A stretch of 64,000 bases of DNA from an uncultured Muribaculaceae bacterium. Lineage in GTDB: Bacteria > Bacteroidota > Bacteroidia > Bacteroidales > UBA932. This document shows, in pieces, positions 11,464 to 40,502 of the stretch (the first letter of the stretch is position 1; every line of letters starts with the position of its first letter). The translations under genes were made by a program, and so were the position numbers. Under the pieces are notes generated by a model. The model was not told the origin of the DNA and did not search any database. It was given only the letters and a program-made list of their open reading frames with translations. The DNA lies in assembly GCA_964349315.1 (NCBI GenBank), contig CAYGGD010000001.1, positions 758-64,757 of the forward strand. The letters run 5' to 3'.

Positions 11464-11730
11464 TTAGCTCTTACTAACAATATACTCTGCAATAGTTCTG
11501 ACAGAGCGGAAAACCTCTTTATTAGCTTTCGGGTCCTCCATTCTGATACCATACTCTCTCTCTAACAGAATCACAAGTTCCAGGGCATCGATTGAATCCA
11601 GACCCAAACCCTCTCCAAACAGAGGGGCGTCAGCATCTATATCTTCAGGAGATATCTCCTCCAGATTGAGGGCTGCAATAATCTGATGTTTAAGCTGATC
11701 AATAATCTGGTCTACAGTCTTTTGTTCCAT
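11464..11730 (-). CDS. Acyl carrier protein (cluster ACP 2)
   Basis: 88 aa, acidic, GLGLDSIDALEL phosphopantetheinylation motif. Confidence 0.92.
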   Translation of the reverse strand: MEQKTVDQIIDQLKHQIIAALNLEEISPEDIDADAPLFGEGLGLDSIDALELVILLEREYGIRMEDPKANKEVFRSVRTIAEYIVSKS

Positions 11731-11754
11731 AATTTCAAGTGTAAAATTATAATA

Positions 11755-13056
11755 TTATTTTGCTGATTTATTTTTATACAACAGTGCTGCAATAAAACAT
11801 ATTACTCCAAAAAGCAGAAGAGCTCCGCCGTAAGGCAGAACAGATATCAGCCCCTCATCTCTTAAAAATATTTGATAAAAACCCGACATTCCCCAGTTAA
11901 GAGGAGATAATTTGCTTATAATCTGCATTAAAGGAGACATAATAAAAATTGGAATCCAGATGCCGCCAATAGCAGCAAAAATCACAACAGATACTGCACC
12001 AAAGACAGATGCCTGCTGATGAGTTCTTGCAATATTGCCTATTGCAATTCCATATCCGATTGCAGCCACCGCGGCCGAGAGAGCCATAAAGATAAGCGCC
12101 GATATTGAGTGCCCGGTTTCAAGAGCCGGAAGACCGATGTAGGGTATCAGGTAAATACCTATAAGCAGCATTATTGCAAACTGTAAAAGAGCTACTATCA
12201 TATACATTAGTGCTTTGCTTAAAAGGTACTCGACATAGGTGCAAGGCATTGTCAAAAGGCGAGTGAAGCTTCCACTCTCCCTCTCTTTAATGATATTTCC
12301 GGCAAGCGACACAACTATAAAGAATACCGCAAAAAGACTCCACGCCGGAATGTTGTGCTGAACAGCATTTGGGACAATATTACTCTCATCCGGAATAGCA
12401 AATTTAGCGTCAACTGTAAACTGCTCACCTGAGAAATTATCTGCAGAAATAACCACCGGAGATAAATCATTAACCTGTGAAGTTATCTCATTCATTATAA
12501 AATCAAATTGAACTTTTTGAGCTTTCTCTTGTATTGTGCTCATAATAAGAGAATAAAAAGACCCGTTTGCTGTCGGATCAACTACAATCGTAAGCTTTAC
12601 ATCCTCTTTAAACGGAGCCCTTTCAATCCCGTTAAAGGCACTCACAACATAACGTTGAACATTCCCCTTTATCATCTCTGTGGCCTCTTCCGGAATAAAT
12701 ATTCCAAGGAGATATTCACTTACAGATATTTTTATCTCCATATCGGATACCGCACTTCCCTCTCCCCTGGTAATCTCAAAAATACCAGAGCTTTCTATCT
12801 CTCGCTCAATAGCCGAGCCCAATTCTCCGGCATCGTTATTAATTAGAAGGAGGGGGATCTTCACCCCCTTTACAACATTGAATGTACTCTCCTGAAGATT
12901 CGCCATTAGAACAACAAGAACAATGGGCATAACAAACATCAGTATAATTCCGCCTATATCCCTCTTAAGCAATATAAAGTCCTTAAGCAGAAGGTATTTC
13001 ATCCTGTATGCAATGTCTGTAAAAGAGCTCTTCTCACTTGTCTTAAATTTACTCAT
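11755..13056 (-). CDS. ABC-2 type exporter permease
   Basis: LMFVMPIVL TM1, periplasmic domain, IIKERESGSFTRLLTMP, C-terminal TMs. Confidence 0.88.
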   Translation of the reverse strand: MSKFKTSEKSSFTDIAYRMKYLLLKDFILLKRDIGGIILMFVMPIVLVVLMANLQESTFNVVKGVKIPLLLINNDAGELGSAIEREIESSGIFEITRGEGSAVSDMEIKISVSEYLLGIFIPEEATEMIKGNVQRYVVSAFNGIERAPFKEDVKLTIVVDPTANGSFYSLIMSTIQEKAQKVQFDFIMNEITSQVNDLSPVVISADNFSGEQFTVDAKFAIPDESNIVPNAVQHNIPAWSLFAVFFIVVSLAGNIIKERESGSFTRLLTMPCTYVEYLLSKALMYMIVALLQFAIMLLIGIYLIPYIGLPALETGHSISALIFMALSAAVAAIGYGIAIGNIARTHQQASVFGAVSVVIFAAIGGIWIPIFIMSPLMQIISKLSPLNWGMSGFYQIFLRDEGLISVLPYGGALLLFGVICFIAALLYKNKSAK

Positions 13057-13816
13057 AAGTATCCCTCATCTGTTTTCCTGTTAATTTAAAATACAGGGCT
13101 TCAAGATTTTTACAATCGGGGTGTTGTTCAGAAAGTTCACAAGGGTTACCCTCCAGTACAACCCTGCCTCCATCCATTAAAGCAATTTTATCACAAATTG
13201 ACTCTGCCTCCTCAAGGTAATGAGATATAAACATCACAGTTGTTCCCTCTCTGTTAATCTTAACAAGCTCTTCAAGAATAAGGTTTCTCGACTGAGCATC
13301 AACCCCAACCGTGGGCTCATCCAGAATAAGAATCTGCGGACGATGCATCATCCCGGCAACTATATTTATTCGCCTCTTCATCCCTCCCGAGTACTCACTG
13401 ACAAGTTTATCTGCACTGTTAGTTAGTCCAAACTGAGCAAGAAGATTTTTTATCCGGAGTTTAAGCTCCCCCTCCCTGATTCCGCAAATGCCACCAATAA
13501 CCCTAAGGTTCTCCCTTCCTGTAAGAGAAGGAAAAAGAGCAATATCCTGCGGAACAAATCCTATTATTTTCTTAATTGAATTTAGTGAGTCTTTTACAGA
13601 GAGTCCGTTGATATTTACATCTCCGCTATCAAAACCTTTAAGGCCGCACATTATTTCAATGGTTGTAGTTTTGCCTGCTCCGTTAGGGGCCACCAAACCA
13701 AAAAGAGAACCCCTTTCTACTCTTAAAAAGAGCGAGTTAAGAGTAGGATTAACCCTTCCTTTATATCTCTTTACAAGTCCTTTGATATCTATTGCATAAA
13801 CTGCACTATCCAACAT
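13049..13816 (-). CDS. ABC exporter ATP-binding protein
   Basis: APNGAGKTT, YSGGMKRR, LILDEPT, ISHYLEE. Confidence 0.93.
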   Translation of the reverse strand: MLDSAVYAIDIKGLVKRYKGRVNPTLNSLFLRVERGSLFGLVAPNGAGKTTTIEIMCGLKGFDSGDVNINGLSVKDSLNSIKKIIGFVPQDIALFPSLTGRENLRVIGGICGIREGELKLRIKNLLAQFGLTNSADKLVSEYSGGMKRRINIVAGMMHRPQILILDEPTVGVDAQSRNLILEELVKINREGTTVMFISHYLEEAESICDKIALMDGGRVVLEGNPCELSEQHPDCKNLEALYFKLTGKQMRDTYE

Positions 13817-13828
13817 GCTCTCTGGTTT

Positions 13829-14857
13829 TTAATTAGTCTGCCTAAATTTGCTTAGTCTGCAATGCTTGGCCAAATCTCTGAAAATTGCCTCCTCTTTATG
13901 GGAGATTGCTATAAGCTTGTCTGCTAACTGGTTGTAAGTGATTGGTTCGGCATCACGCTTTTTTATAAGGCGGGCTGCATTATAGGAGAAGTCCCGCCAC
14001 ATATCACCTGCAATTGTCATCTCTGCAGATAGTTCACGCAACCCCGGGTCATTCATAAATACAGAGGCCTCCTGCAAAAAAGCTGCATAAATAAAGCGGA
14101 ATCCCGCGCCGCCTGTTCCAATCTCTTCGTTCATTCTCACTATTTGCGCCAGATTAAGTGCTGCTCTTTTTGCACCCATTCTGCTCTCCCATTTTCGCAT
14201 CCTCCCAGCAAGAAATCTTATACCCTTTACACCAAACATTGGAATCGGAATTTTAAGCATCCTGTTGCAATTTTTCAAAATTGCCCTGCGAACCGTATCT
14301 GCAGTAACACCGCACTTGCTACTTACATCAGTTATATGGTACATTCTCCCCTTTGGCGGATAAGTACCACTGGCAAAGCGTACAAGCTTAAGCTCTTCAT
14401 AAGTAAGCCTGCACTTATCCACAACAACAGGATCTGATACAGTATAAACATCCCCATCCTTTCCAGTAACGCAGATATTGTGTGCATTAAAATGGAATCT
14501 GTACTCCTTTGGAAAATATGGCAGATGGTAAACACCCACAAGCATGCCAACAGGAATACCTCTTTCCAGCAGAGAATCCAAAACTCGCATAGCTTTTTCC
14601 TTGTCACTAAACTTATACCGCTTAATCTTTATATTTAACAGCGAAAGTACCCTCGAGAAAATATCTCCGGGAAGCGGACGAAAAGAGGTGACAGCCATAC
14701 CATGAAGACGAATAAAGGGCATATGAGCAAAGAAGAGGCCGGAGCCCAGTCCAAAAACCATTGCCTCACTCATCTCAACTCCATAATATCGTAAAAGATT
14801 GCTTACAACACCATTTTCGCAATGACCGGAAGGTTTGTGAATAAAGTCGAGCTGCAT
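13829..14857 (-). CDS. BtrH-like (papain-fold, BtrH_N + DUF4872-type) putative acyltransferase
   Basis: N-terminal GHCENG Cys, FNAHNI His, EEIGTGGAGFRFIY; family typical of flexirubin-type clusters. Confidence 0.75.
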   Translation of the reverse strand: MQLDFIHKPSGHCENGVVSNLLRYYGVEMSEAMVFGLGSGLFFAHMPFIRLHGMAVTSFRPLPGDIFSRVLSLLNIKIKRYKFSDKEKAMRVLDSLLERGIPVGMLVGVYHLPYFPKEYRFHFNAHNICVTGKDGDVYTVSDPVVVDKCRLTYEELKLVRFASGTYPPKGRMYHITDVSSKCGVTADTVRRAILKNCNRMLKIPIPMFGVKGIRFLAGRMRKWESRMGAKRAALNLAQIVRMNEEIGTGGAGFRFIYAAFLQEASVFMNDPGLRELSAEMTIAGDMWRDFSYNAARLIKKRDAEPITYNQLADKLIAISHKEEAIFRDLAKHCRLSKFRQTN

Positions 14858-14858
14858 A

Positions 14859-15263
14859 TTAATCTAAAGAGGTAAGTTGTTCTACACTAATTCCAAGAGC
14901 AGAAGCCATGCGCTTAAGCTGCTGCTCCTGCAATTTGCTGAAATGCTTTGCTTTGCACCATTTTTTAATCTCCCTTTTAGAGAATCCTGAATAGTCCGAT
15001 AAAATCTCAGGAGTCATAATAAGACGGTGAAGATGGTATACCAGAGGGCTTTTGTCACCTGAGAGAACCTCCTTTTTAATCTCTTCGCACTCCTCATAAA
15101 TTGATTCCCATGTAAAATCGAGAGCCACATTCTTAGCATCCCAGCCAACACTAATAATCTGCTTGTAATCACCATTTTCGTCAGTTGCGTAGCAGACATC
15201 CCGAACGCCTGAACTCTCTAATATTTTGCCATCCTGAGGAACCTCATTAACCTTCATAATCAC
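14859..15263 (-). CDS. Conserved hypothetical protein of flexirubin-type clusters with C-terminal Xre-like HTH
   Basis: EVPQD..CYATDENG..SVGW N-terminus; TPEILSDYSGFSKREIKKW and LKRMASALGISVEQL resemble Cro/Xre helices. Confidence 0.6.
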   Translation of the reverse strand: MIMKVNEVPQDGKILESSGVRDVCYATDENGDYKQIISVGWDAKNVALDFTWESIYEECEEIKKEVLSGDKSPLVYHLHRLIMTPEILSDYSGFSKREIKKWCKAKHFSKLQEQQLKRMASALGISVEQLTSLD

Positions 15264-16398
15264 AAACAGTTAGATAAACAAAAGCGTACGAAAATCTTGC
15301 ACTCTCGGGAACCATCACCAAAATTCTCTCTCCCTTATTTAATTTGCCGCTCTTTAACAGTTCGTCAATCATAATAAAGGCAGATGCAGCTGCTATGTTG
15401 CCCACAGCCGGAAGATTGACAAACCATTTCTCTTCAGGAATTGTAAAACCGAGAGAATCTAACTCCGCAAATATTTTTGAACGGAAATACATAGACGAAA
15501 GGTGAGGCAAAAACCAATCTATCTCTTCCGGCTTAAGCGACCTCTTTTGGACCACCTGCTTTAGAAAACGGCCTCCAAGTTTTACAATATTCTCTCCAAG
15601 TAACTTTGTATCTTGCTTTAAAGCAAAGAGAGATCGCCCGGTCCACTCCCCCTCCTCAAAACCACACCATCCGGAGAGCTTACCCTCATTGTTATAATCT
15701 GCGCCCGCATACATACAGGTGGGCATTGTATTAGCGTAAGAGGTTAGCTCAATCCACTCAACCTTTAGAGATAGCCCCGACTCTGCCGGTCTGTTCTTTA
15801 AAAGCAGGGCAGAGGCACCATCCGAAAGCATAAAGCGTAAAAAATCTTTCTCAAAAGCAATTATGGGATCCTTCTCGAGACGCTTTAGACTCTCATACTC
15901 ATCATTAAAAAAGGAGCTCTTCATCCATGCAGAAAACCTTTCCGAAGCAACTGCAACAGCATTTGATTTATCTCCCGATGCAATTGCCATAAAACCATAT
16001 TTGAGCGCATGAATTCCGCTGCAGCAAGAACCTGCAAATGAGACAACCTCTGCATTTGAGTGGCCGCCCATCTCTCCATGAATCTGCACCCCGTGAGAGG
16101 GCATAATCATCTCCTGAGAGGCAGTTCCGGCAGCAAGAAGTTCTATTGTATCTTCGTTAATATCATAATCGTATAGTTTTTCAATGGCAAGTTTTGCCAT
16201 CTCAAACGAAGAATGTGTTACCCTCTGCTCTTTGTCAATTGCATAATAACGTGCCTTAATCTGATTATTCCTTAATATAAGGTTCCGGGCTTTAGAGGGC
16301 TTCCCTCCAATCATACCAAGATAATCCTCAATATGATCATTGCTAATAGGTTCGTTTGGCAAAAAAGAGGAAGATTTGGTTATATATACAGAATTCAT
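15247..16398 (-). CDS. darB: Dialkylresorcinol cyclase, DarB/StlD-type FabH-like ketosynthase
   Basis: Cys-His-Asn triad (GSCCSG, LPHLSS, VGNIAA), MVPESARFS; adjacent to darA. Start ATG 16398 (MNSVYIT). Confidence 0.88.
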   Translation of the reverse strand: MNSVYITKSSSFLPNEPISNDHIEDYLGMIGGKPSKARNLILRNNQIKARYYAIDKEQRVTHSSFEMAKLAIEKLYDYDINEDTIELLAAGTASQEMIMPSHGVQIHGEMGGHSNAEVVSFAGSCCSGIHALKYGFMAIASGDKSNAVAVASERFSAWMKSSFFNDEYESLKRLEKDPIIAFEKDFLRFMLSDGASALLLKNRPAESGLSLKVEWIELTSYANTMPTCMYAGADYNNEGKLSGWCGFEEGEWTGRSLFALKQDTKLLGENIVKLGGRFLKQVVQKRSLKPEEIDWFLPHLSSMYFRSKIFAELDSLGFTIPEEKWFVNLPAVGNIAAASAFIMIDELLKSGKLNKGERILVMVPESARFSYAFVYLTVCDYEG

Positions 16399-16408
16399 AT
16401 CTCTATTA

Positions 16409-17341
16409 TTAACTCTGTGAAAATAAGATTTTTTGGCCAATTTTCCTTAATCCTGCTCTTCTAAATGGGTATGTGAGCATAAAAAAGAGAGAACCAAAAG
16501 GAGAGACAGCAAATATTACAGTATTAAGATAGTATTTAAACAACTTAAGACGAAAAGCTCTGCGGGGATCTCTGTACCCACCTCTTTTAATTACAAACTT
16601 TGCCCACTTTCCCCAAAGGCGATTCCCATTAGACTCTACAAAGTAGAGCCCCGGATGAAACTGAACTAAACCCCTTTCCACTATCTCTCCCTGCAGTGAA
16701 TTCCAGTTGCCGGAGGTTATTGCCTCAAAGATAACGGGAGCTATAGCTGCAACACTCAAGATATCTGCATCAGAAACCCCTGCCTCCGGAAGAAAACGAG
16801 AGGCCCCCTTTTGTCCCTTTATAAGCCAGCGAAACACAGTAAGAACTCCTATAAGATTGTTGTGTCTGTCCTCCAGAGCAATATTCCCGGTCCATCTGCA
16901 TCCATACTCCCTAAGTCTCTTACCAACACTTAAGTGGGCAGATATCCACATATTCCTGGAACCAACAACCGTGAGCACTATTTTTCCTTTGAGGTAGCTA
17001 CCGGTACTACTCTCCCCTAAAAAAGAGGAGAAGGGGATTGAAGGGGCAAGAAACCACGGCTGATAACCCAGAATAATAAGATCTGCATCTATAACATCAG
17101 AAAAATCGACAGGTTCTATCTCAACGGGAATTTCGAGTCTCGATTCAGGAAAGGATTCATAAAAATCCTGTTCACTCCACGGAAATCCAAAAGGGACTTT
17201 TGGTACTATATCTTTATATGTTACTCTGCAACCCATACTCTCAAGAGGTTTTGTCAATGAGTTGAGAATAGAGGTCAGTTGCCCTGTCTGAGAGTAGTGA
17301 AAAACGGCAATGTGCGGTTTTCTGGTATGGGTCGTTGTCAT
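16409..17341 (-). CDS. darA: DarA dialkylresorcinol condensing enzyme/aromatase (flavodoxin-like N-terminus)
   Basis: HYSQTGQL..PFPWS..FPES, YQPWFLAPSIP, RNMWISA, DRHNNL..TVFRWL; directly upstream of darB. Confidence 0.88.
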   Translation of the reverse strand: MTTTHTRKPHIAVFHYSQTGQLTSILNSLTKPLESMGCRVTYKDIVPKVPFGFPWSEQDFYESFPESRLEIPVEIEPVDFSDVIDADLIILGYQPWFLAPSIPFSSFLGESSTGSYLKGKIVLTVVGSRNMWISAHLSVGKRLREYGCRWTGNIALEDRHNNLIGVLTVFRWLIKGQKGASRFLPEAGVSDADILSVAAIAPVIFEAITSGNWNSLQGEIVERGLVQFHPGLYFVESNGNRLWGKWAKFVIKRGGYRDPRRAFRLKLFKYYLNTVIFAVSPFGSLFFMLTYPFRRAGLRKIGQKILFSQS

Positions 17342-17955
17342 AATTGAAACATTGAAGGTGATACTGCAGAGTTAAGTGATAATCCGGAGAATTTGTATAT
17401 TGTATAATCATTGCTCCTCTCCCATAGAGTAAGTTGCTCCAATGAGTAGTCTGAATAGTTTATAACCATCTCTATCCTGATATAAGGAGATTGAGTGTTA
17501 GTTCCCGAAGGTGTAATCTCTACTATATGTGTGTTATCCCTTAACGAGTACGATATAGTGTATCCGGAAGGAATAGACTTGATATCTCCACCTATACAGG
17601 CCTCCATAACGGCAGCAAGATCAGAAATCCCCTTTTGCGATTCAAGTGAAAATGTATTGGTTTTTCCGGCAGATAGTATATAGAGTTTAAGAGGTGTAAT
17701 AACAATTGACATCTCTTTTGGAGATGTGTAGTCAAATCTCATATTGCCACTTCTCTTATAATAGAAAAGACCACTCGACTCAACACTATCATTTAGAATT
17801 GTTATGAACTTTTTCTGAACAAAGTTTCCCGAAACCGACGAAACAGTTTTCGAGTGCTGTGCAAGTGCCAGAAAAAATTCCTTCTCAGATGATCCGTAGA
17901 TAAACCCTGATGAGAGCACAAGAGAGAGCATTATTATAAGCTTATTCATATTCAT
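17338..17955 (-). CDS. LolA-family periplasmic lipid carrier (cluster copy 2)
   Basis: Signal peptide; SGNFVQKKFI..SSGLFYYKRSGNMRFDYTSP, the LolA FxQ / G-x-F / RWxY pattern. Confidence 0.75.
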   Translation of the reverse strand: MNMNKLIIMLSLVLSSGFIYGSSEKEFFLALAQHSKTVSSVSGNFVQKKFITILNDSVESSGLFYYKRSGNMRFDYTSPKEMSIVITPLKLYILSAGKTNTFSLESQKGISDLAAVMEACIGGDIKSIPSGYTISYSLRDNTHIVEITPSGTNTQSPYIRIEMVINYSDYSLEQLTLWERSNDYTIYKFSGLSLNSAVSPSMFQL

Positions 17956-17963
17956 TTATTAAT

Positions 17964-19268
17964 CTAATCTGATTCACGCATATCTATAAACTTAAGGGGC
18001 TTTCTGCTTATCTCCGGTTGAATTGCTTTGGAGAGCAACTCCACCGGCTCAAACCTGATCTCCGGAGCAACCCTTATCCTGGCACGAAAATGTTCTGTAA
18101 TCATCTTCTCAAAAGAGAGCGAAGGATTAACCGCTCCTATCTTAATAAGAATACCATCTGTACCTATTGAGTTTGTATAGATATGTACCTGATAATTAAT
18201 CACCCCCTCAATGTTGTCCAGAATATCATAAAGAGCAGATGGATACAGAGTTGTGCCTTTGTATTTTATCATCTGGCCCTTTCTGCCAACTATTGGACTC
18301 AAACGTGTACTGTAACGCCCGCATCTGCACTGCTCATAAAAGGCCATACAAAGATCTCCGGTTTTAAATCTTACCAGAGGCATCCCTTCGACACCCAGAG
18401 TTGTGATGACAAGTTCTCCTGTCTCACCATCTTTAACTCTGTTTTCATTTTCGTCAAGTATTTCTATAACAACAAGATCGCTCTGATGATGCGCTCCGCA
18501 TAAGTATTCACACTCTGTAAAAGAGCTCTGCATTTCGGTAGAAGCGTAGGTAGAATGAAGTGTGATGTTCGGCCATTTTTGCATAATCTTTTTATTGAGA
18601 GTGTTTTGTGAAAGATCTACCTCCCTTAGTGGCTCTCCTATACAAATCGCTCTCTTTAGTGAAGAGGAGCTGTAATCAATACCGTTTTTCTCCGCAAACT
18701 CAGCCAATTTAATCAAAAAAGAGGGTACTACAATACAAGCAGATGGAGAGTTGCTCTTGATAGAGCTCCACTGAAGCTCCGGAATGCCATTCCCAACTCT
18801 TATTATTCCGGCTCCTAACTCTCTGGCTCCCAAAAAATAGGCAAGACCGGCCATAAATCTTTTATCAATTGTGGTCATTAGCTGAATAACATCTCCCGGC
18901 AAACAACCCGCAGTTGAGAAAGATATCTTTTCGTTGTATGCAAGTCTCTGCAAATCGCTCTCTGTGAGCATAAAATTTACTGGCTCTCCAAGTGTTCCGG
19001 ATGTTGTTACATAATCCATAACCCTCTCCCTTGGCACACATAAGAAATCGTTGTTATAAATCTGAAGATCCGACTTACATGTTGTTGGAATCTTTGTCAA
19101 ATCTTCAACTCCATTTATAGAATTGACATCAACTCCTGACTCCCTAAACAACCTTTTATAGTAGGGAGAGTTTAAAGATACATATTTAAGACTCTCTCTA
19201 AGGGATTCATCCTGAAAGCGTTTAATCTCTTCTATGCTTTTAAACTGAATCAAGGGATCTCTTTTCAT
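17964..19268 (-). CDS. Phenylacetate-CoA ligase (PaaK)-like aryl-acid adenylating enzyme
   Basis: TTSGTLGEP P-loop, YASTE, GELVITTLG..PLVRFKTGD, GTTLYP. Confidence 0.88.
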   Translation of the reverse strand: MKRDPLIQFKSIEEIKRFQDESLRESLKYVSLNSPYYKRLFRESGVDVNSINGVEDLTKIPTTCKSDLQIYNNDFLCVPRERVMDYVTTSGTLGEPVNFMLTESDLQRLAYNEKISFSTAGCLPGDVIQLMTTIDKRFMAGLAYFLGARELGAGIIRVGNGIPELQWSSIKSNSPSACIVVPSFLIKLAEFAEKNGIDYSSSSLKRAICIGEPLREVDLSQNTLNKKIMQKWPNITLHSTYASTEMQSSFTECEYLCGAHHQSDLVVIEILDENENRVKDGETGELVITTLGVEGMPLVRFKTGDLCMAFYEQCRCGRYSTRLSPIVGRKGQMIKYKGTTLYPSALYDILDNIEGVINYQVHIYTNSIGTDGILIKIGAVNPSLSFEKMITEHFRARIRVAPEIRFEPVELLSKAIQPEISRKPLKFIDMRESD

Positions 19269-29699: not shown

Positions 29700-30620
29700 C
29701 TATCTCTGAATTATCATCAGCGATGCTGCCTCGTTAAGATAACTGTTTATTATTAGTACATACTCTCCTATCTCTGAATTTGACAACAGATTTACTCCCC
29801 TCCAGAGTCCATAGGCAGCCGAGGTGGGATACTCTCCGCAGCAGAGTTTATAATACTCTGTATCTATTTTCATATCTTCGAAATAGCTGCATAAAGAGTC
29901 TCTCCCGCAAACAACTGCCCTCAATCGGCTAAACGATAGTCCACAGCTCTGCAGTAACTCTTCGCTTTTTTTAATAATCTCGTTATCAGATAAATTTCTC
30001 CTCAATATTTCCAACGCCACAATCTTTCCCATTGATCTCTCTGCTTTCGCAGGTGAAAGAACAAAAAAAGTAGATCCCTCTCCTCTGATATGTTTTCTCC
30101 ATATACCCATTCTATTAAGAAGATTCTCTTTAGTGGGTGTTAGCTCATCAAACCCACCAGCAAGGATTCGCTCTCTTCCCTCCACTGCAAGCATAGAGGC
30201 ATCAATAATTGCAGCTTCGAATGACCCTCCACCGTGTACAAATGTGTTGTTATAGTGGTTATCGCTCAATATAAGTGCAATCTGAGACCCAATCGTATTG
30301 GAGGTGCTCTGGATAAAGGATGCGGGATTAAGCATCCGCTCGTTGTTATCCAAAATAGAGATCAGAAACTTCTCTGTATCTGCAAGACAACCCCATCCTG
30401 TTGCGGTAACAATTGCATCAATTTTATTGTTCCCGGAACTCTCTAATGCCATTAGGGCAGATGATATTCCCATACGATTTATTCTGCTCATTCTTCTTCT
30501 TACTCCGGCATCAGGAATATAGAGCTTATAGTCCGGCTCCGGTTGCAAGAGTCTCTCCTGAGCTGAACCACTAAAATTTATAGTGGCCATACCATTAATA
30601 TAGAGATTCATGCCTTTCAT
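29700..30620 (-). CDS. Chain-length factor (non-catalytic ketosynthase partner)
   Basis: RRMSRINRMG, ATGWGCL, NPASFIQSTSNTIGSQIAL; no catalytic Cys motif; follows a KS. Confidence 0.85.
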   Translation of the reverse strand: MKGMNLYINGMATINFSGSAQERLLQPEPDYKLYIPDAGVRRRMSRINRMGISSALMALESSGNNKIDAIVTATGWGCLADTEKFLISILDNNERMLNPASFIQSTSNTIGSQIALILSDNHYNNTFVHGGGSFEAAIIDASMLAVEGRERILAGGFDELTPTKENLLNRMGIWRKHIRGEGSTFFVLSPAKAERSMGKIVALEILRRNLSDNEIIKKSEELLQSCGLSFSRLRAVVCGRDSLCSYFEDMKIDTEYYKLCCGEYPTSAAYGLWRGVNLLSNSEIGEYVLIINSYLNEAASLMIIQR

Positions 30621-31822: not shown

Positions 31823-31823
31823 A

Positions 31824-33575: not shown

Positions 33576-33991
33576 TCTGTATAAAACTCAGGATTATTCC
33601 ACTCCAGCTCACCATTCGGGTTGAGAAAAACCTGCAGAGAGTAGCCGGTAGCAACAAGAGTGCTGTCACTCTCTCTGTAGATATCATATTCGAAGCGTAT
33701 TTTTGCCGCCGGTAAAAAAATATACTTTGTCTCCACAACTGCAATTTCACCGTATGTGAGCGGTTTTAGATAACTACAGTGCAGATCCACAATAGGGGCT
33801 GTGTAACCTGCTCCATAGATATCCAGATACCCAATTCCAAATCTCCTTCCAAAGGCCTCTCTGCCATCTTCAAAATACTTTACATAGTTCCCATGCCAGA
33901 CAATATTCATTGAGTCCACATCGGAAAAACGAACCTTAACGCTCTCCCTGTGAACAAGTGCCGCCTCTCTTAAACCTCTTCTCTTTCTCAT
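33545..33991 (-). CDS. Acyl-CoA/ACP thioesterase (4-HBT/YbgC hotdog fold)
   Basis: VRFSDVDSMNIVWHGNYVKYFEDGRE. Confidence 0.9.
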   Translation of the reverse strand: MRKRRGLREAALVHRESVKVRFSDVDSMNIVWHGNYVKYFEDGREAFGRRFGIGYLDIYGAGYTAPIVDLHCSYLKPLTYGEIAVVETKYIFLPAAKIRFEYDIYRESDSTLVATGYSLQVFLNPNGELEWNNPEFYTEWQKKWKLIK

Positions 33992-34007
33992 ATGATAAAC
34001 TCCTAAA

Positions 34008-34463
34008 CTATTTTTGTAAAAAAATCTTCAGTTCGGCTGAGGCAGCTTTTCTCTCTCCACAATAGAGAACAGCCTCAACAAGAGATATATCCCCAAACTC
34101 TCCCAACTCTCTTATATGAGTAATAATCTCTTTACCCACAAGTGGAAACTCTGTTATCACAAACTTAGATACCGCACCAATGAAACCCACAGGTACACTC
34201 TCACCTCTGCTTATAAATTTATATCCTGTTACTGCAGCTGCAGATTGAGCCATATTCTCTATTACTCCGGGTTCGGTCAAACAAATATCATCAGCTCCGG
34301 AAACAGACTTGGTAAAGAGTGTTTCTGCAACCGGAGTAAAACCGGTAACCTGATTACCATCTATCTCTCCGTAGTAACTCTCCACAAAAACAAAAGGCGC
34401 TCTCTGGGGAATCAGCTTCAATATCTCCTCCCCGGTAACTATGGCTTTCTCAAGTACTCCCAT
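34008..34463 (-). CDS. Hotdog-fold dehydratase partner (ApeP-like)
   Basis: LIPQRAPFVFV, VIENMAQSAAA, VGFIGAV. Confidence 0.8.
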   Translation of the reverse strand: MGVLEKAIVTGEEILKLIPQRAPFVFVESYYGEIDGNQVTGFTPVAETLFTKSVSGADDICLTEPGVIENMAQSAAAVTGYKFISRGESVPVGFIGAVSKFVITEFPLVGKEIITHIRELGEFGDISLVEAVLYCGERKAASAELKIFLQK

Positions 34464-35833
34464 ATTAAACCTTTTTTCTTTTTTAAAACTCTGATTCTGT
34501 CTATATCTGCCGATAAAGGGTCATCCGGAAAAATCCATGCTTTTCCGGTCTCTTTTGCCATCTCCCTGCACCTCTCCAGCGAAAAGTCCTTAGCCAGATA
34601 GTAGGTGGGATCGAGAAGCGAGTCTTCTGCAGATATCGTTCCATCCTCAATTGCCATTCTGTGCAATGGCGTACCCGGATATATCCTCATACCAATATAT
34701 GGGAAAAATACCGAATATCGAATTTTTTTTGAGTTCTCCATTGTCTCTCTGAGCGTCTTCTCTGTCTCACCAATTCCTCCTAATATAAGAAAATGAGCAT
34801 AAAAAATATTGTATTTAAACGCCCTGTGTGAGTTGAGCAACACATCTTCTATGGTAAAATTTTTGCCGTAACGCTGCATCTGTTCTGAACACAGAGACTC
34901 TGTTCCAAATTCTATGTGCTTAAGCCCTGCTCTTTGAAAGAGTGCAAGCAGATCGTCGGTTAGGTTATGGGGAGAGAAGTATGCACCCCAATTGATTTTT
35001 ATCCCGCTTTTAATGATTTTCTCTGCAAGTTGGGCATTGTAACTGTTGTGTATATTAAACACCGAATCTGTAAAAAAGACATAGTTTATCCCCTTATCTC
35101 TGCACAGCCTCTCAAGCGTACCAACAATAAGGTCTGTATCGAGAGTTCTCACACATCTTCCGTCAATTATCGGGTATGAGCAATAAATACAGTTATAGCA
35201 GCACCCTCTTTTTGTCTGAATATTCAACATACCACTACTCTCCCAGTAGAAGTCCGATAGCTTCTCGTCAAACTGCAAATTGAGGTTGTTGAGATATTTG
35301 GTATGAGGATTAACTACCAAACCTCCTGTCTCTTTAGATATAAGCCCCTCTATTTTACTATAATCATTAATCTTATCCTGGCTGCCATCTGCTACATAAT
35401 TGTTAAGGGCAAGTATCAACTGGCGCAGACTCTCCTCCCCCTCCCCTGTAATTCCATAATCGGGGCTCAGCAGTTGAAATAACTTTTCGGGAAAGATTGA
35501 GAAGCCGGCACCACCCATTATTACAGGCGCGTTTGTGCTTGCTCTCACAGCATCCATTATTTCTGAGTATCCGGGAATAAAACTAGTCATGTCCAGAGAG
35601 TTGGCTCCATCGATATTTCTTATCGAAACTCCAACCCAGTCCGGCGAATACTCCTTTATCTCAGTCTCAAGCTCAGAAACCGTTATCAGGTTCATATCTG
35701 ATATCTTAACATCCAGCCAATCTATTTTACTTAATAGATATGTCTTAAGATAAGAGAGGCCCAGGGGATACACCGGACAGGGGTCTGCAAGTCTGTTTGC
35801 AGATATCAGCAGAAATTTTTTCTCTCTTCTCAT
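34439..35833 (-). CDS. B12-binding radical SAM protein (lipid-biosynthesis-associated class)
   Basis: N-terminal cobalamin-binding domain (PVYPLGLSYL, GVSIRNID), CCYNCIYC containing CxxxCxxC, FGTES, RIYPGTPL. ATG 35833 overlaps the upstream TGA (ATGA). Confidence 0.9.
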   Translation of the reverse strand: MRREKKFLLISANRLADPCPVYPLGLSYLKTYLLSKIDWLDVKISDMNLITVSELETEIKEYSPDWVGVSIRNIDGANSLDMTSFIPGYSEIMDAVRASTNAPVIMGGAGFSIFPEKLFQLLSPDYGITGEGEESLRQLILALNNYVADGSQDKINDYSKIEGLISKETGGLVVNPHTKYLNNLNLQFDEKLSDFYWESSGMLNIQTKRGCCYNCIYCSYPIIDGRCVRTLDTDLIVGTLERLCRDKGINYVFFTDSVFNIHNSYNAQLAEKIIKSGIKINWGAYFSPHNLTDDLLALFQRAGLKHIEFGTESLCSEQMQRYGKNFTIEDVLLNSHRAFKYNIFYAHFLILGGIGETEKTLRETMENSKKIRYSVFFPYIGMRIYPGTPLHRMAIEDGTISAEDSLLDPTYYLAKDFSLERCREMAKETGKAWIFPDDPLSADIDRIRVLKKKKGLIWEYLRKP

Positions 35834-36729
35834 TTCCAAAACTTATAATAATTATACCACTGCTCAGGTGCTGTTTTTACAACTCTCTCAAGACCTTTTA
35901 CATAAGTTTCCAAAATAGTGTTCTCCCTTTTTTCAGATGCAAATGCTGACTCCTTTTTGCAGAGCTCGAAATGGAACAGATATCTCTTGTAACCTGTCCT
36001 GATTGCATAATAGAAAACAACAGGTACATCAAAACGGGCTGCAATTACAAACGGACCAATGGGAAACATAGCTTTTGATCCCATAAAATCCATCTCTGCA
36101 CCTCTGCCTCCGGTGTTAATCCGGTCTCCTTGAATAGCAATATACGCTCCCTCTTCAAGAGCATCTCTTATCTCAAAGATGTGTGAGAGAGAATCCTCCT
36201 TAACAGGAATCACAGTAAAAGTTTCTACCCTTTTTTGAGCCTCAAGTATCTGTTTGATCTTCTGATACTCAGAATCTACCATCACTACCCGCATCTTCTT
36301 TCCGTATTTACCAAAATATGGAGCGCCAATTTCCCAGTTTCCAAAATGGGCACCTAAAATAACAGCACCTGTGCTGCTGTTAAGTACATCTTTGACCTCG
36401 CCGGGTTCGTGAAAATCAAATTTAAACTGCTCATACAATCCGGCAGAAGCAGCCGTCTTGTCTATTAGAGCAACCCCTAAATTAAAAAAGCTTTTATAGA
36501 TGAAAACCAATGAAGAGAGAACACCTTTTCCAAGAATCTTACGTGAATAGAACCAGACAGATGCAGTTGCTCCGGGGGCGAAAGGGATATAATAGATAAC
36601 GACAAATGACAACAGCACATATGCCATTGTCACCCCTAAATACTTGATGATAAATACGAATGTGAGATATCCGGCGGCTCCTCCCCTCGATTTACCACTC
36701 CACTCATTTTGGGGTCTCCTTTTTTTCAT
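35830..36729 (-). CDS. LpxL/LPLAT-family acyltransferase
   Basis: WSGKSRGG N-terminus, GAHFGNWE (H-x4-E), IQGDR, FMGSKAMFPIGPF, PEQWYNYY. Confidence 0.88.
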   Translation of the reverse strand: MKKRRPQNEWSGKSRGGAAGYLTFVFIIKYLGVTMAYVLLSFVVIYYIPFAPGATASVWFYSRKILGKGVLSSLVFIYKSFFNLGVALIDKTAASAGLYEQFKFDFHEPGEVKDVLNSSTGAVILGAHFGNWEIGAPYFGKYGKKMRVVMVDSEYQKIKQILEAQKRVETFTVIPVKEDSLSHIFEIRDALEEGAYIAIQGDRINTGGRGAEMDFMGSKAMFPIGPFVIAARFDVPVVFYYAIRTGYKRYLFHFELCKKESAFASEKRENTILETYVKGLERVVKTAPEQWYNYYKFWK

Positions 36730-36967
36730 CTAAGCGAGAATTGATAAAGTGATAAAAGTCATTAAACGTTTTAATGCCTGTAAAATCCTTTGCAACAACA
36801 GTAAATCCGAAATTATGCTCAATAAGAACCACCATATCTACCAGATCAAGACTATCCAGATTAAGTGTTTCCATTAAAGGTGCATCAGGTTGAATCATAT
36901 CTGCATCAACCTCAAATTCATCTGCAAGGACTGTGTTGATTTTTTGAATAAGTGCGGTATCAATCAT
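36704..36967 (-). CDS. Acyl carrier protein (cluster ACP 1)
   Basis: 87 aa, acidic, LNLDSLDLVD motif. Confidence 0.92.
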   Translation of the reverse strand: MIDTALIQKINTVLADEFEVDADMIQPDAPLMETLNLDSLDLVDMVVLIEHNFGFTVVAKDFTGIKTFNDFYHFINSRLDEKKETPK

Positions 36968-36973
36968 AATATT

Positions 36974-38206
36974 TTAATAACTATTTGTATCAATATCTTT
37001 TAGAATCAGTGTAGAGTTTGTGCCCCCAAAACCAAAAGAATTAGAGAGTAAATGATCAAACTTAAAGTCGACAAGTTTATTTGATATTCTGAGTCTTGAT
37101 GAGGCTTCGTCAGCTTTGTTATAGTTTATTGTAGGAGCAATAAATGAGTTTTTCATCATAAGAACAGAATAGACAATCTCGCTTGCACCTGCCATCCACA
37201 TCTCATGTCCGGTAAGACTTTTGGTTGATCCTACATATGGTTTGTGATCTCCGAAGACTTCGTCAATTGCCAGAGCTTCGTTAAAATCACCAATCGGAGT
37301 CGATGTCGCATGGGCATTGATATAACCAATATCTTCTCTCCTGACTCCCGCCAAATCGAGAGCCATTAATAAAGATCGCTTTGGACCTTCAATATTTGGC
37401 ACAGAAATATGGTCTCCGTTTGACGAAAAACCATAAGACAATATCTCGGCTAAAATTGGAGCCCCCCTCTTTATCGCAGATTCGTAACTCTCCAGAATTA
37501 CTGTTGCAGCTCCTCCGCTGGGAACAAGTCCATCTCTGTCGGCGTCAAAGGGCCTTGATGCCTCCAAAGGAGAGTCGTTTCTTACCGAGAAGGCGTTCAA
37601 ACCATCAAAACTGGAAACAGCATACTTGTTCACCTCCTGAGCTCCTCCGCAAATAATACACTCCTGAAGACCATTCTTTATCATCATAAAAGCCATTCCT
37701 ATTGAGTGTGAACCACTTGCACAAGCTCCTGCAATAGTCAGGTTAATACCCTTAAGTCTGAATATTACAGAAAGATTCATTGTTACTGTCGAGTTCATAG
37801 ACTGAAAAACAGAGCCCGACCCAACCAATGTAGTATTCTTCTTTTCTCTTATTAAATCGACCCCCTCAACTACGGCAAGAGCACTGCTGTCATTCCCGTA
37901 CAAAATTCCAACCTCACGACTATCCAGAAAATTATCATTTATGCCCGCATTATTAAGTGCCTCTGCTGTTGCAACATACGCATAGGCCGCCTCCTGTGAC
38001 ATTGATATTCTCTTCCGTCTGTCAAGCACCTTTGTAAGATTAGGTTTGGGCAGAATACCCGTAAGGGATGAGCGAAATCCAAACTCAGCTCTCTCCGGAT
38101 CTATTCCTATTCCGGATTTTCCCTGTTTAAGAGAATCAAGAACATCATTTAAATTTTGTCCGATACATGAGTAGATTCCCATGCCTGTAATAACCACTCT
38201 GGCCAT
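36974..38206 (-). CDS. Beta-ketoacyl-ACP synthase (FabB/FabF-like)
   Basis: GACASG, HATST, TGHEMW, NSFGFGG. Confidence 0.92.
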   Translation of the reverse strand: MARVVITGMGIYSCIGQNLNDVLDSLKQGKSGIGIDPERAEFGFRSSLTGILPKPNLTKVLDRRKRISMSQEAAYAYVATAEALNNAGINDNFLDSREVGILYGNDSSALAVVEGVDLIREKKNTTLVGSGSVFQSMNSTVTMNLSVIFRLKGINLTIAGACASGSHSIGMAFMMIKNGLQECIICGGAQEVNKYAVSSFDGLNAFSVRNDSPLEASRPFDADRDGLVPSGGAATVILESYESAIKRGAPILAEILSYGFSSNGDHISVPNIEGPKRSLLMALDLAGVRREDIGYINAHATSTPIGDFNEALAIDEVFGDHKPYVGSTKSLTGHEMWMAGASEIVYSVLMMKNSFIAPTINYNKADEASSRLRISNKLVDFKFDHLLSNSFGFGGTNSTLILKDIDTNSY

Positions 38207-38234
38207 AAACTATTTATTTCTCTTATATATTTAG

Positions 38235-38963
38235 TTATGTATAAAGTCCTCCGTTTACAGATATCACCTCTCCTGTAATATAGGATGCCTCCTTTGAGGC
38301 AAGGAAAGCAACAACAGCCGCAACCTCTTCCGGCTTTCCAAATCTCTCCATAGGTATCTGCTTTCTGAGTACAGACTCATCCAGGTCGCTTGTCATATCA
38401 CTAATGATAAACCCTGGTGCCACTGCATTCACAGTAATACCCTTCTTTGCCACCTCTTGCGCTAACGCTTTTGTTGCAGCAATGACCCCCCCTTTGGATG
38501 CGGAGTAGTTTGTCTGTCCGGGAAGCCCCTTTATTCCTGATAGTGAAACTATATTTATTATCCTTCCAAATCTCTTTACAATCATATCCTTCAGAAGTGG
38601 TCTGGTAACATAGAACATTCCGCTAAGGTTTGTCTCAATAACACTGTGCCACTCAGACTCCTCCATCCACATCATCAGGTTATCACTGCGTATTCCTGCA
38701 TTGTTCACAACAATTTCAATATACTCTCCGGGGTTAGCCTCGCTCCACCCCTTTATAGCAGCCTCGGTTTGTTCTCTGTCCGAAACATCAAATTTAACGA
38801 GAGTTGATAAACCACCCGCTTGAGAAATAAGCTCAGCGCACTCCTCTGCAGCAATATCGTTAGATTTGTAGTTAATAAGAGTGTGATAACCCATAGCGGC
38901 GAGCTTTATAGCAACCGCCCTTCCAATACCTCTGCCTGCACCCGTAACTAAAGCGTATTTCAT
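38235..38963 (-). CDS. fabG: 3-oxoacyl-ACP reductase (cluster ketoreductase)
   Basis: TGAGRGIG, VNNAG, NYSASK (YxxxK), NAVAPG. Confidence 0.92.
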   Translation of the reverse strand: MKYALVTGAGRGIGRAVAIKLAAMGYHTLINYKSNDIAAEECAELISQAGGLSTLVKFDVSDREQTEAAIKGWSEANPGEYIEIVVNNAGIRSDNLMMWMEESEWHSVIETNLSGMFYVTRPLLKDMIVKRFGRIINIVSLSGIKGLPGQTNYSASKGGVIAATKALAQEVAKKGITVNAVAPGFIISDMTSDLDESVLRKQIPMERFGKPEEVAAVVAFLASKEASYITGEVISVNGGLYT

Positions 38964-38978
38964 TATAATACCTTTTTA

Positions 38979-40502
38979 TTATTTTGTATTTTTCAAGAAA
39001 TTTACAATAGCTTCAATCTCTTTATATTTAGGAGTATCGTCAGAAAATTTCGGAAAAAATTCTCTAATGGCAAAGTAGATCTCCTGACTCTCTTGTGAGA
39101 TTTCATTCTCTATGCCGAGATAATCTATCGCCTGTAAGAGCGCCATAAAGTGAATTGCCATAACCTGATACCCATTCTCAATTACTTTGGCGGCCATAAG
39201 TGCCGAATTTGTACCCATACTTACGATATCCTGGTTATCGTTATTGTTTGGGATTGAGTGGACATAAACAGAGTTTGAGAGAGTCTGAGACTCTGCTGTG
39301 GTGGATGTTGCAGTAAATTGTGCTGCCTGTAGCCCATAGTTAAGACCAAGTACCCCAAGATTTACAAACGGGGGTAGAATCCCGTTTATTTTATCGTGAA
39401 ACAGATAGTTTAGCTGCCTTTCGGTTAACATGGTAAGCTTTGTAATTGCAATTTTTAGCTTATCCATCTCAAAACTGACATAATCGCCGTGAAAATTACC
39501 TCCGTGATAGATATTTTGAGTTTCAGGGTCAACAACCGGATTGTCACATACACTGTTAAACTCCCTCTCAACCACGTCTTTAGCATTGCAAAGAGTATCA
39601 TAAACCGGCCCCAGAATCTGAGGAACGCATCTTAATGAGTAGTATCCCTGTACCTTTTCTTTAAAGATTCGGCTATTGTTACTCCCGTTATAAAGATCAG
39701 ATTCTCTTTTCTTTAATCTGGAAGATGTAGCGAATATCTCTCTCATCTGAGCAGCGATATAGAGCTGACCACTATGTGGCCTGCTATCCATAAGCGGTTC
39801 AGAAACAAAATCGTCATAGGAAAAGGCAATCTCATTCATCATCGCAGATGCCAGGGTTGCCCACTTAATTAGTTGTTGAGAGAAGTGGATATTTACAGCC
39901 GCTATTCCGGTCATTACACTGGTTCCGTTGGCAATGGCGAGCCCCTCTCTTATGTAAATCTCAAGTGGTTTTAAATTGCATTCCTTCAACACCTCTTTGG
40001 TCTCTCTCAACTCCCCTTTATAAAATACTTCTCCCTCTCCAATAAGTGCAAGCCCTATATGTGCCATCTGAACCAAATCTCCACTTGCCCCCACTCCTCC
40101 GTGCTCTGGAATCAGAGGACAGATATCATTGTTAAGGAAAGCAACAAGGAGATCACAAAGTTCTTTGTTCACCCCGGACTTACCCTTGAGAAAGTTTGAA
40201 AGTCTTGCAAGCATGGCAGCCCGAACATAAACAAGAGGTAACGCGTCTCCTGCACCACAAGCATGAGAACGAATAATATTGTACTGAAGGGATTTGAGTT
40301 GCTCATCCTCAACACGAAACTGGGCCATTGGTCCAAATCCGGTATTAATACCGTAAATCACCTTCTTCTTTGAGAAACTCTCGAGAAAATCATAACACTC
40401 AACAACCTTTTTCCGGACAGATTTATCAATAGAGATTCTCTCTATATTCAAAACAATCGAAGTTATATCTTGATAAGATAAATTAAGGCCTAATTCTATC
40501 AC
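38979..40502 (-). CDS. MIO-dependent aromatic amino acid ammonia-lyase, probable tyrosine ammonia-lyase (FlxA/FjTAL-like)
   Basis: YGINTGFG, GVGASGD (ASG forms MIO), NGTS, YSLRC, HGGNFHG, NNDNQDIVSMG. First gene of the cluster. GTG 40502 preferred because the longer ORF runs through the promoter and terminator. Confidence 0.88.
   Translation of the reverse strand: MIELGLNLSYQDITSIVLNIERISIDKSVRKKVVECYDFLESFSKKKVIYGINTGFGPMAQFRVEDEQLKSLQYNIIRSHACGAGDALPLVYVRAAMLARLSNFLKGKSGVNKELCDLLVAFLNNDICPLIPEHGGVGASGDLVQMAHIGLALIGEGEVFYKGELRETKEVLKECNLKPLEIYIREGLAIANGTSVMTGIAAVNIHFSQQLIKWATLASAMMNEIAFSYDDFVSEPLMDSRPHSGQLYIAAQMREIFATSSRLKKRESDLYNGSNNSRIFKEKVQGYYSLRCVPQILGPVYDTLCNAKDVVEREFNSVCDNPVVDPETQNIYHGGNFHGDYVSFEMDKLKIAITKLTMLTERQLNYLFHDKINGILPPFVNLGVLGLNYGLQAAQFTATSTTAESQTLSNSVYVHSIPNNNDNQDIVSMGTNSALMAAKVIENGYQVMAIHFMALLQAIDYLGIENEISQESQEIYFAIREFFPKFSDDTPKYKEIEAIVNFLKNTK

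Follow-up and report, generated by a model that had tools for sequence, protein, structure and literature searches.

A flexirubin-type gene cluster with a cobalamin-dependent radical SAM enzyme in a probable anaerobe of the Bacteroidales

In chemotaxonomy, flexirubins are regarded as pigments of aerobic Bacteroidota. The locus described here raises the question of what a flexirubin-type gene cluster makes in a bacterium that is very probably an anaerobe, and of what an additional enzyme, a B12-binding radical S-adenosylmethionine (SAM) enzyme, contributes to the product. The cluster lies at 11464-40574 of a 64,000-nucleotide stretch (hereafter the window; positions 758 to 64,757 of contig CAYGGD010000001.1, assembly GCA_964349315.1) from an uncultured Bacteroidales bacterium, and it contains both an aryl-polyene (APE) arm and a dialkylresorcinol (DAR) arm in one block. 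The best overall explanation, which we hold to be likely, is a canonical flexirubin-type cluster plus one cobalamin-dependent radical SAM enzyme. Its product, as predicted from the genes of an uncultured metagenome-assembled genome (MAG), would with good confidence be a flexirubin-like outer-membrane pigment lipid.

Gene content and comparison with characterized flexirubin loci

An earlier, sequence-only reading of this DNA had proposed a complete flexirubin-type APE-DAR cluster of 27 co-oriented genes ending at 40502. The open reading frame (ORF) listing of the window, together with the Pfam and NCBIfam profile searches by which the gene products were named, confirmed 27 consecutive ORFs at 11464-40574, all on the minus strand and covering both arms; position 40502 proved to be an internal GTG. 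The 5′ end itself is uncertain, since the longest ORF begins with TTG at 40574 and the alignment to the FlxA model begins only at residue 33, leaving the true start of FlxA in doubt. All junctions between the ORFs are 31 nt or shorter and 14 of the 26 are overlaps, which indicates co-transcription; the block thus looks like a single transcription unit and one operon-like flexirubin-type cluster. Nine matches to flexirubin-specific NCBIfam models exceeded their curated cut-offs (FlxA, FlxB, FlxY, LolA2 twice, LolB2, DarH, the DarG family and the StlD/DarB family). The hallmarks of the flx and dar loci are all present, namely initiation by FlxA/FlxY, a fatty acid synthase (FAS)/polyketide synthase (PKS)-like set of type II, the DarA/DarB pair and an attachment/export module.

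The window was compared with the loci described by Schoner et al. 2014 (PMC3992019), namely flxA-flxY (Cpin_1853-1877) and darA-J (Cpin_6843-6852) of Chitinophaga pinensis and Fjoh_1074-1110 of Flavobacterium johnsoniae UW101. When set against the C. pinensis loci, 26 of the 27 window genes had counterparts, and their order was nearly kept. From 40574 down to 17964 the window is collinear with flxA-B-C-D-E-F-H-I-L-N-O-P-Q-R-S-T-U-V-W-Y, and from 17341 down to 11464 with darA-B-G-H-I-J-C. The earlier claim of completeness is borne out. The sole gene without a C. pinensis counterpart is that of the B12-radical SAM enzyme, located between the LpxL-type acyltransferase and the dehydratase in the window only. 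The earlier reading had also listed this enzyme, and it is indeed absent from both characterized clusters: the terms "radical" and "B12" have no occurrences in the gene tables for these clusters in Schoner et al. 2014 (PMC3992019). The genes, from the 5′ end of the block, are as follows.

38979-40574, minus: FlxA, tyrosine ammonia-lyase (TAL); NF053541, 832.9 bits (cut-off 700); PF00221, 535.7 bits
38235-38963, minus: FlxB, short-chain dehydrogenase/reductase-type ketoreductase; NF053542, 390.7 bits (cut-off 340)
36974-38206, minus: ketosynthase (KS), FlxC-like; N- and C-terminal ketoacyl-synt domains; active-site Cys in AGACASG
36704-36967, minus: acyl carrier protein (ACP), FlxD-like; PF00550; DSL at residue 38
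35830-36729, minus: LpxL-family acyltransferase, FlxE-like; PF03279, 61 bits
34439-35839, minus: B12-binding radical SAM enzyme; TIGR04072, 374.4 bits (cut-off 360); PF02310 and PF04055
34008-34463, minus: hotdog dehydratase, FlxF-like, 151 aa; weak full-length FabZ match (E 0.001)
33545-33991, minus: 4HBT thioesterase, FlxH-like; PF13279 and PF03061
31824-33575, minus: KS with C-terminal partial KS, 583 aa (FlxI and FlxL fused); KS domains; Cys in SNACISG
30617-31822, minus: KS, FlxN-like; PRK09185-type KS, 304 bits; Cys in NTACSS
29700-30620, minus: chain-length-factor-like KS (CLF), FlxO-like; PF13723; without the active-site Cys motif
29000-29668, minus: carbohydrate esterase family 4 (CE4) polysaccharide deacetylase, FlxP-like; PF01522, 119.8 bits
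28362-29003, minus: LolA2, FlxQ-like; NF053544, 168.5 bits (cut-off 125)
27806-28384, minus: LolB2, FlxR-like; NF053540, 80.9 bits (cut-off 60)
26275-27813, minus: fusion of FabA-like dehydratase, family 2 glycosyltransferase (GT2) and DUF2062 (FlxS and FlxT); PF07977, PF00535, PF09835
22430-26272, minus: MMPL/RND exporter with PlsC-type acyltransferase and class-I methyltransferase, 1280 aa, FlxU-like; PF03176, PF01553, PF13847
20953-22428, minus: FAD enzyme of the CrtD/retinol-saturase family, FlxV-like
19265-20956, minus: C45 N-terminal-nucleophile (Ntn) hydrolase/acyltransferase, FlxW-like; NF040521, 220.5 bits
17964-19268, minus: FlxY, 4-coumarate-CoA ligase; NF053551, 671 bits (cut-off 520)
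17338-17955, minus: second LolA2 paralogue; NF053544, 126.8 bits (cut-off 125)
16409-17341, minus: DarA, resorcinol aromatase; homologues named DarA; directly upstream of DarB
15247-16440, minus: DarB, ketoacyl-ACP synthase (KAS) III-type cyclase; NF005293 (StlD/DarB family), 536.4 bits (cut-off 450)
14859-15263, minus: DarG; NF053536, 123.9 bits (cut-off 70)
13829-14857, minus: DarH, BtrH-related acyltransferase; NF053550, 421.3 bits (cut-off 300)
13049-13816, minus: ATP-binding cassette (ABC) transporter ATPase, DarI-like; PF00005
11755-13056, minus: ABC-2 permease, DarJ-like; PF12698, 111 bits
11464-11730, minus: second ACP, DarC/FlxM-like; NF006617, 83.7 bits (cut-off 70); DSI at residue 45

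This list includes the whole inventory claimed in the sequence-only reading (TAL, CoA ligase, three KS, CLF, ketoreductase, dehydratase, thioesterase, two ACP, and DarA/DarB), and adds genes that were missing from it, namely DarG, DarH, the ABC-2 pair, the two LolA2, LolB2, and the C45 and LpxL-type acyltransferases. FlxA carries the ASG triad of its MIO prosthetic group at residue 163 and a histidine ammonia-lyase (HAL)-like "SH" motif 1, as has been reported for FlxA (Schoner 2014, PMC3992019). The catalytic Cys is kept in all three KS and is absent from the CLF. DarA had no match in Pfam or NCBIfam; homologues that are 39-43% identical to it carry the name "dialkylresorcinol condensing enzyme DarA". 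Against the narrower model NF053539, DarB scored 535.9 bits, slightly below the cut-off of 550, and DarG scored 133 against the flexirubin_DarG equivalog, under its cut-off of 170.

Two of the genes are joined forms. In the 583-aa KS (31824-33575), the C-terminal ~190-198 aa are a partial KS that matches the N-terminal part of FabF. This extension is the counterpart of FlxL, a separate "condensing enzyme" in C. pinensis, and several other lineages have an ORF of ~210 aa at this place. For the FabA-GT2 fusion at 26275-27813, relatives from the same genus have a separate ORF of ~122 aa ahead of the GT2; the FabA-GT2-DUF2062 joining could be either a genuine fusion or the result of a lost stop codon.

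Apart from the radical SAM gene and these two fusions (FlxI with FlxL, FlxS with FlxT), the window differs from C. pinensis in having one extra LolA2 and in lacking flxG (hypothetical), flxJ (methyltransferase), flxK (halogenase), flxX (holo-ACP synthase), darD/E and darF. Moreover, the two arms are contiguous in the window, whereas flx and dar are at separate loci in C. pinensis. In this respect the window is like F. johnsoniae UW101, in which both arms form a single contiguous cluster with the functional classes of the window, among them the CE4, GT2, LolA, ABC-2 pair, C45 and retinol-saturase-like genes. Unlike the window, F. johnsoniae has a halogenase beside TAL, a second DarAB-like pair and beta-barrel proteins. 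It has no radical SAM gene, and DarA/DarB occupy the place that this gene takes in the window, between the LpxL-type acyltransferase and the dehydratase.

The sequence-only reading had further described the tailoring genes as a non-canonical set, and this part did not hold. The GT2, the CE4 deacetylase and the retinol-saturase-like flavoprotein correspond to C. pinensis flxT, flxP and flxV and are standard in the C. pinensis and F. johnsoniae clusters, as are the MMPL-acyltransferase-methyltransferase protein (flxU) and the C45 enzyme (flxW). The reported lack of a flavin halogenase was upheld, as the 90.7%-complete genome gave no match to Trp_halogenase at all. The reported lack of a methyltransferase stood only in part: there is no stand-alone methyltransferase ORF in the cluster, but a class-I SAM methyltransferase domain (residues ~1098-1226) is fused to the exporter in the 1280-aa MMPL-acyltransferase protein. 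FlxU has been described with the same set of exporter, acyltransferase and methyltransferase domains (Schoner 2014, PMC3992019). When 401 high-quality Bacteroidota genomes were sampled, FlxA was above cut-off in 23, the window's genome included. In 14 of the 22 other TAL-bearing genomes, neither a Methyltransf_2-type nor a Trp-halogenase gene was present in or near the cluster; the remaining eight have a methyltransferase and/or halogenase gene, either within or next to the cluster or, elsewhere, as two neighbouring genes. Lacking FlxJ and FlxK is thus ordinary among flexirubin clusters.

A more distant likeness is to the proteobacterial ape clusters, which have in common with the window a type II PKS-like polyene assembly, an acyltransferase, a GT2, LolA-like proteins and MMPL export. 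Such clusters were reportedly described, for example from E. coli CFT073 and Xenorhabdus doucetiae, by Cimermancic (2014) and Grammbitter (2019). They start from 4-hydroxybenzoate rather than from tyrosine-derived coumarate and have no DarA/DarB arm. In a 2026 gut-microbiome paper, an arylpolyene cluster of Bacteroides xylanisolvens was likened to the C. pinensis flexirubin cluster. Our literature search found no paper that links flexirubin clusters to radical SAM enzymes or describes this variant of the cluster, and nothing relevant turned up on B12-binding radical SAM enzymes in arylpolyene biosynthesis.

The B12-radical SAM enzyme and the distribution of the cluster variant

The radical SAM gene (34439-35839) overlaps both of its neighbours and is translationally coupled to them, the LpxL-type acyltransferase on one side and the dehydratase on the other. 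Its product matched TIGR04072, for which the NCBIfam name is rSAM_ladder_B12, "lipid biosynthesis B12-binding/radical SAM protein", a name taken from ladderane-type lipid clusters; PF02310 was matched at residues 23-141 and PF04055 at residues 209-368. A CxxxCxxC motif is present at residue 213, and Cys 213, 217 and 220 are invariant in 13 homologues. With a confident AlphaFold2 model of the enzyme (pLDDT 81.8, pTM 0.83), the best Foldseek matches were all cobalamin radical SAM enzymes, namely TsrM (TM 0.73), AprD4, MgmA, OxsB and TokK.

The best named profile after TIGR04072 was BzaD (TIGR04385), which scored 195.5 bits over residues 21-423 against a cut-off of 450. The tryptophan C2-methylase (TsrM) model scored 109 bits (cut-off 500), the PhpK model scored 78 bits, under its cut-off, and the BchE model gave a weak match of 65.7 bits. 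BzaD, the methylase of an anaerobic benzimidazole pathway, and TsrM are like the window enzyme in their two-domain architecture, and both methylate aromatic carbons. The window enzyme differs from BzaD in falling under the family cut-off and in sitting in a polyketide/lipid cluster, not among bza genes. When the enzyme was aligned with TsrM by HMMER, the Val of "TDSVFN" in the window enzyme fell opposite the Glu of "TDSEFN". Knox et al. reportedly found in 2021 that this Glu of TsrM caps the 4Fe-4S cluster at its unique iron and thereby prevents radical chemistry. With Val at this position, the enzyme is expected to initiate radicals in the ordinary way, and methylation of an aromatic carbon by a non-radical mechanism like that of TsrM was rejected.

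Close relatives of the enzyme are encoded by 383 stretches in species genomes, and 80 species loci were fetched from among these. Most of the 80 keep the order FlxA-FlxB-KS-ACP-acyltransferase-radical SAM-dehydratase-thioesterase-KS-(ACP)-KS-CLF-CE4-LolA-...-GT2-MMPL, and none of them contains an extra ORF of methyltransferase or halogenase size. They are labelled as Alistipes, Rikenellaceae, Prevotellaceae (termite gut), Paludibacteraceae, Marinifilaceae, Dysgonamonadaceae, Breznakibacter, Mucinivorans and Acetobacteroides. Between lineages, the radical SAM enzymes are 50-76% identical, similar to the identity of their neighbours, which argues that the gene is an old component of the cluster lineage and not a recent insertion.

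Of 52 species genomes of the host's genus, 25 had a FlxA match that exceeded the cut-off, and 25 likewise a DarB match, mostly ~23.5 kb from FlxA; the TIGR04072 search covered 25 genomes, and the cut-off was exceeded in 14 of them. Among the 25 genus genomes in both searches, FlxA and TIGR04072 go together; within the genus, DarB co-occurs with them. Two seeming exceptions to the co-occurrence of TAL and the radical SAM gene, G021 and G007, were rejected as such, for their contigs end before the missing gene. In one genus genome (G045:C1:1660508-1672766), a mere ~11 kb separates TAL from DarB, in place of the ~23.5 kb seen in most, which suggests that the cluster there is shortened or rearranged. 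In the Bacteroidota sample, all 22 other genomes with FlxA were without a TIGR04072 match above cut-off. A genome of the same order (G141; L087:15031-16131, minus strand) carries a simpler TAL-led aryl-polyene cluster with no radical SAM gene and no DarA/DarB within 40 kb; an O-methyltransferase with a dimerization domain lies between its KS and ACP, and the genome is without a heme-copper oxidase. Taken together, the radical SAM variant of the cluster has been conserved across many other Bacteroidales lineages as well as in roughly half of the species that make up the genus. The cluster of the window is therefore an ordinary member of a widespread, conserved anaerobe variant and not a rarity of this strain.

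More distant homologues were located with an alignment of six divergent radical SAM sequences. TIGR04072-like genes with 33-39% identity occur on high-GC metagenome contigs in ACP-KS-radical SAM-CE4-ACP-KS-KS-thioesterase clusters, mostly without TAL or DarAB. The loci L111, L119, L148, L155, L156 and similar ones, which lack TAL and DarAB, often contain a second radical SAM gene that is 20-25% identical. Fusions were also found among the distant homologues (P0249, P0252, P0258): an LpxL-type acyltransferase is joined N-terminally to the radical SAM protein (P0249), a radical SAM protein bears a C-terminal 4HBT hotdog domain, and another is fused with a second radical SAM-SPASM enzyme. The gene overlaps, the fusions of the homologues and the FAS-like contexts of the distant members all tie the radical SAM enzyme to the acyl-carrier stage.

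The host and its upstream genes

The host is represented by a 1.98-Mb, 204-contig, 90.7%-complete MAG that belongs to the genus of "Bacteroidales bacterium CF", with the window on contig 1. Among the sources of the enzyme's close relatives are "Bacteroidales bacterium CF" itself (complete genome, CP006772) and MAGs from groundwater, digesters and sediment that carry the label Bacteroidales or Bacteroidetes. When the host genome was searched, neither heme-copper oxidase subunit I (COX1) nor cytochrome bd subunit I had a match within its 90.7% completeness, unlike in the C. pinensis system, and pyruvate:ferredoxin oxidoreductase (PFOR) was found at 1903 bits. The lack of a detected heme-copper or bd oxidase together with the presence of PFOR supports the earlier proposal of a probable anaerobe, as do the Bacteroidales MAG relatives, and on this genomic evidence the host is very probably anaerobic. 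NrdD was not found in the same 90.7%-complete genome, and one cobalamin riboswitch was present.

The same pattern was seen beyond the host. A heme-copper oxidase was present in 21 of the 22 other TAL-positive genomes, all of which are without TIGR04072, and was absent from 14 of 15 cluster-bearing genomes of the genus, four of these being complete single-contig genomes; because these genomes are relatives of one another, the counts should be read as a pattern and not as a statistical test. The remaining cluster-bearing genus genome contains a COX1-family match (G008:C36:29643-30977; 214 bits, in a 767-aa frame). Frames of ~750 aa at ~200 bits like this one occur in aerobic genomes beside true oxidases, and the G008 frame may encode a nitric-oxide-reductase-type protein rather than an oxidase.

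The genes upstream of the cluster (40612-47237) comprise two unknowns, an alternative oxidase (AOX)-like protein, a YfhO-like protein, a family 4 glycosyltransferase (GT4) and a beta-lactamase-fold protein. They were rejected as members of the cluster, since none of them adjoins it in any locus examined beyond the nearest relative, L005, in which the two unknowns and the AOX-like gene do so. The AOX-like gene, just upstream of the cluster at 41612-42268 (minus strand), encodes a 218-aa protein with a match to PF01786, the family of the alternative oxidases (30.8 bits; cut-off 22.7). The genes at 42244-47237, also on the minus strand and thus co-oriented with the cluster, encode the YfhO-like membrane protein (836 aa), the GT4 and the beta-lactamase-fold protein; in the related loci examined, none of these was found next to the cluster.

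Predicted product and alternative explanations

By homology, the pathway would begin with the deamination of tyrosine to 4-coumarate by FlxA and activation of the latter as its CoA ester by FlxY. The three KS, the Cys-less CLF, FlxB, the two hotdog dehydratases, the two ACP and the thioesterase would then extend coumarate to an aryl-polyenoyl thioester, and DarA and DarB, with DarG, DarH, an ACP and the ABC pair, would produce a dialkylresorcinol. In the C. pinensis model, FlxW (C45) was proposed as the ester-forming enzyme (Schoner 2014, PMC3992019), and the C45 enzyme of the window is accordingly predicted to join both halves. On the same model, the CE4, the GT2, the LpxL-type and PlsC-type acyltransferases, the MMPL exporter, the two LolA2 and LolB2 would serve attachment and transport to the outer membrane. 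The sequence-only reading had regarded the product as an undescribed relative of flexirubin. This is possible, and the one feature that points to it is the radical SAM gene.

For the radical SAM enzyme itself, we tentatively favor, at somewhat less than even chances, a class-B C-methyltransferase that acts on the carrier-bound aryl-polyene or on the product of the neighbouring acyltransferase. This assignment is suggested by the nearest named families, BzaD and TsrM, which are methylases. The pigment would then carry one or more methionine-derived methyl groups installed without O2. Flexirubin itself bears a methionine-derived methyl group on the ring (Schoner 2014, PMC3992019).

Several points weigh against this picture. 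The methylase assignment is one of family resemblance, in which the scores for BzaD, TsrM and PhpK are all under their cut-offs. B12-radical SAM enzymes also carry out ring contraction (OxsB), dehydration (AprD4) and cyclization, and the structural neighbours of the window enzyme include the non-methylases AprD4 and OxsB. A SAM methyltransferase domain is already present in the FlxU-like protein. In addition, because the distant TIGR04072-like genes mostly occur without TAL or DarAB, the conserved partner of the family is the FAS/PKS core, and methylation of the ring in particular is weakened; this argues that the conserved substrate of the family would be a chain or lipid conjugate, not specifically a phenol ring. 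The idea that the radical SAM enzyme replaces FlxJ/FlxK is likewise weak, as most clusters lacking a radical SAM gene are without FlxJ too; G141, without a radical SAM gene, does carry an O-methyltransferase in its cluster.

The alternative that fares best is that the product is an ordinary flexirubin, to whose final structure the radical SAM enzyme adds nothing. The enzyme would instead supply, without oxygen, a step of the pathway that aerobes accomplish in some other manner, such as an oxidation, a desaturation or an aromatization in the formation of the polyene or the resorcinol. The variant was seen only where a heme-copper oxidase is lacking, and 21 sampled aerobic TAL-bearing genomes were all without the radical SAM enzyme. 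Other B12-radical SAM enzymes replace O2-dependent enzymes in anaerobes, and the weak match to the BchE model (65.7 bits) is in line with such a role, as is the finding that DarA/DarB fill the corresponding slot in F. johnsoniae. However, no canonical gene that might depend on O2 is missing from the window except the optional halogenase, and DarA, DarB and the FlxV-like flavoprotein are all present. Moreover, the core flexirubin pathway is not known to include a step that requires O2, and Schoner 2014 (PMC3992019) describes no such step. We consider this alternative unlikely.

A bolder alternative is that the enzyme performs non-methylating radical chemistry on a polyunsaturated chain (C-C bond formation, cyclization or rearrangement), so that the cluster would make a new lipid scaffold and not a flexirubin-type pigment. 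The NCBIfam model name rSAM_ladder_B12 points in this direction, as do the FAS-like clusters without an aryl starter in which the distant family members reside and the Val that replaces the radical-blocking Glu of TsrM, with which radical initiation is expected. A similar proposal was made in Rattray 2009 (PMC2649909), in which the B12-radical SAM protein Kuste2803 was put forward as a candidate for the cyclization of polyunsaturated chains in anammox ladderane clusters. Besides ACPs and radical SAM enzymes, the clusters described there, which are those of Kuenenia stuttgartiensis and Desulfotalea psychrophila, include many FabF paralogues, a polysaccharide deacetylase and enzymes that resemble phytoene desaturase (PMC2649909). 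They thus share with the window FabF paralogues, ACPs, a desaturase-like enzyme, a deacetylase, a radical SAM enzyme and anaerobic hosts, and the high-GC loci encoding enzymes 33-39% identical to that of the window resemble them as well. Unlike the window, they have no TAL start and no DarA/DarB, and their products are ladderanes and polyunsaturated hydrocarbons, not aryl-polyene esters; the window enzyme is likened to Kuste2803 by model name and cluster description. The proposed ladderane cyclization is not known to have been demonstrated. The remaining genes of the window cluster all fit the flexirubin set, and the nearest named relatives of the enzyme are methylases. A new scaffold of this kind is therefore rather improbable, and we give as little credence to the related possibility that radical C-C bond formation or rearrangement on a carrier-bound polyene yields a cyclized or cross-linked aryl lipid in anaerobic Bacteroidales.

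Finally, that the two arms make separate products, an APE-type aryl-polyene lipid and free dialkylresorcinols with no flexirubin ester, is in keeping with the separate flx and dar loci of C. pinensis and with the TAL-led cluster of G141 that has no DarA/DarB within 40 kb, but it is very improbable, because both arms form one tightly coupled operon here, DarB and TAL co-occur in 25 genomes of the genus, mostly ~23.5 kb apart, and the window includes the C45 enzyme, for which the joining of the two halves has been proposed.

A canonical flexirubin-type cluster with one added radical SAM enzyme thus remains our preferred explanation, and it would place the complete pathway, including the resorcinol arm, in an organism without a detectable terminal oxidase. 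The variant spans hundreds of anaerobic Bacteroidales species genomes and is defined by this one cobalamin-dependent enzyme. Should the non-methylating reading be true, the widespread cluster would give an experimental handle on the ladderane-type chemistry postulated for the anammox clusters. Among the carriers of the variant are gut MAGs labelled as Alistipes, a genus with cultured members. Once solved, the reaction of this enzyme would give the aryl-polyene lipids a new tailoring step and could inform the role of the TIGR04072 family in other anaerobes.

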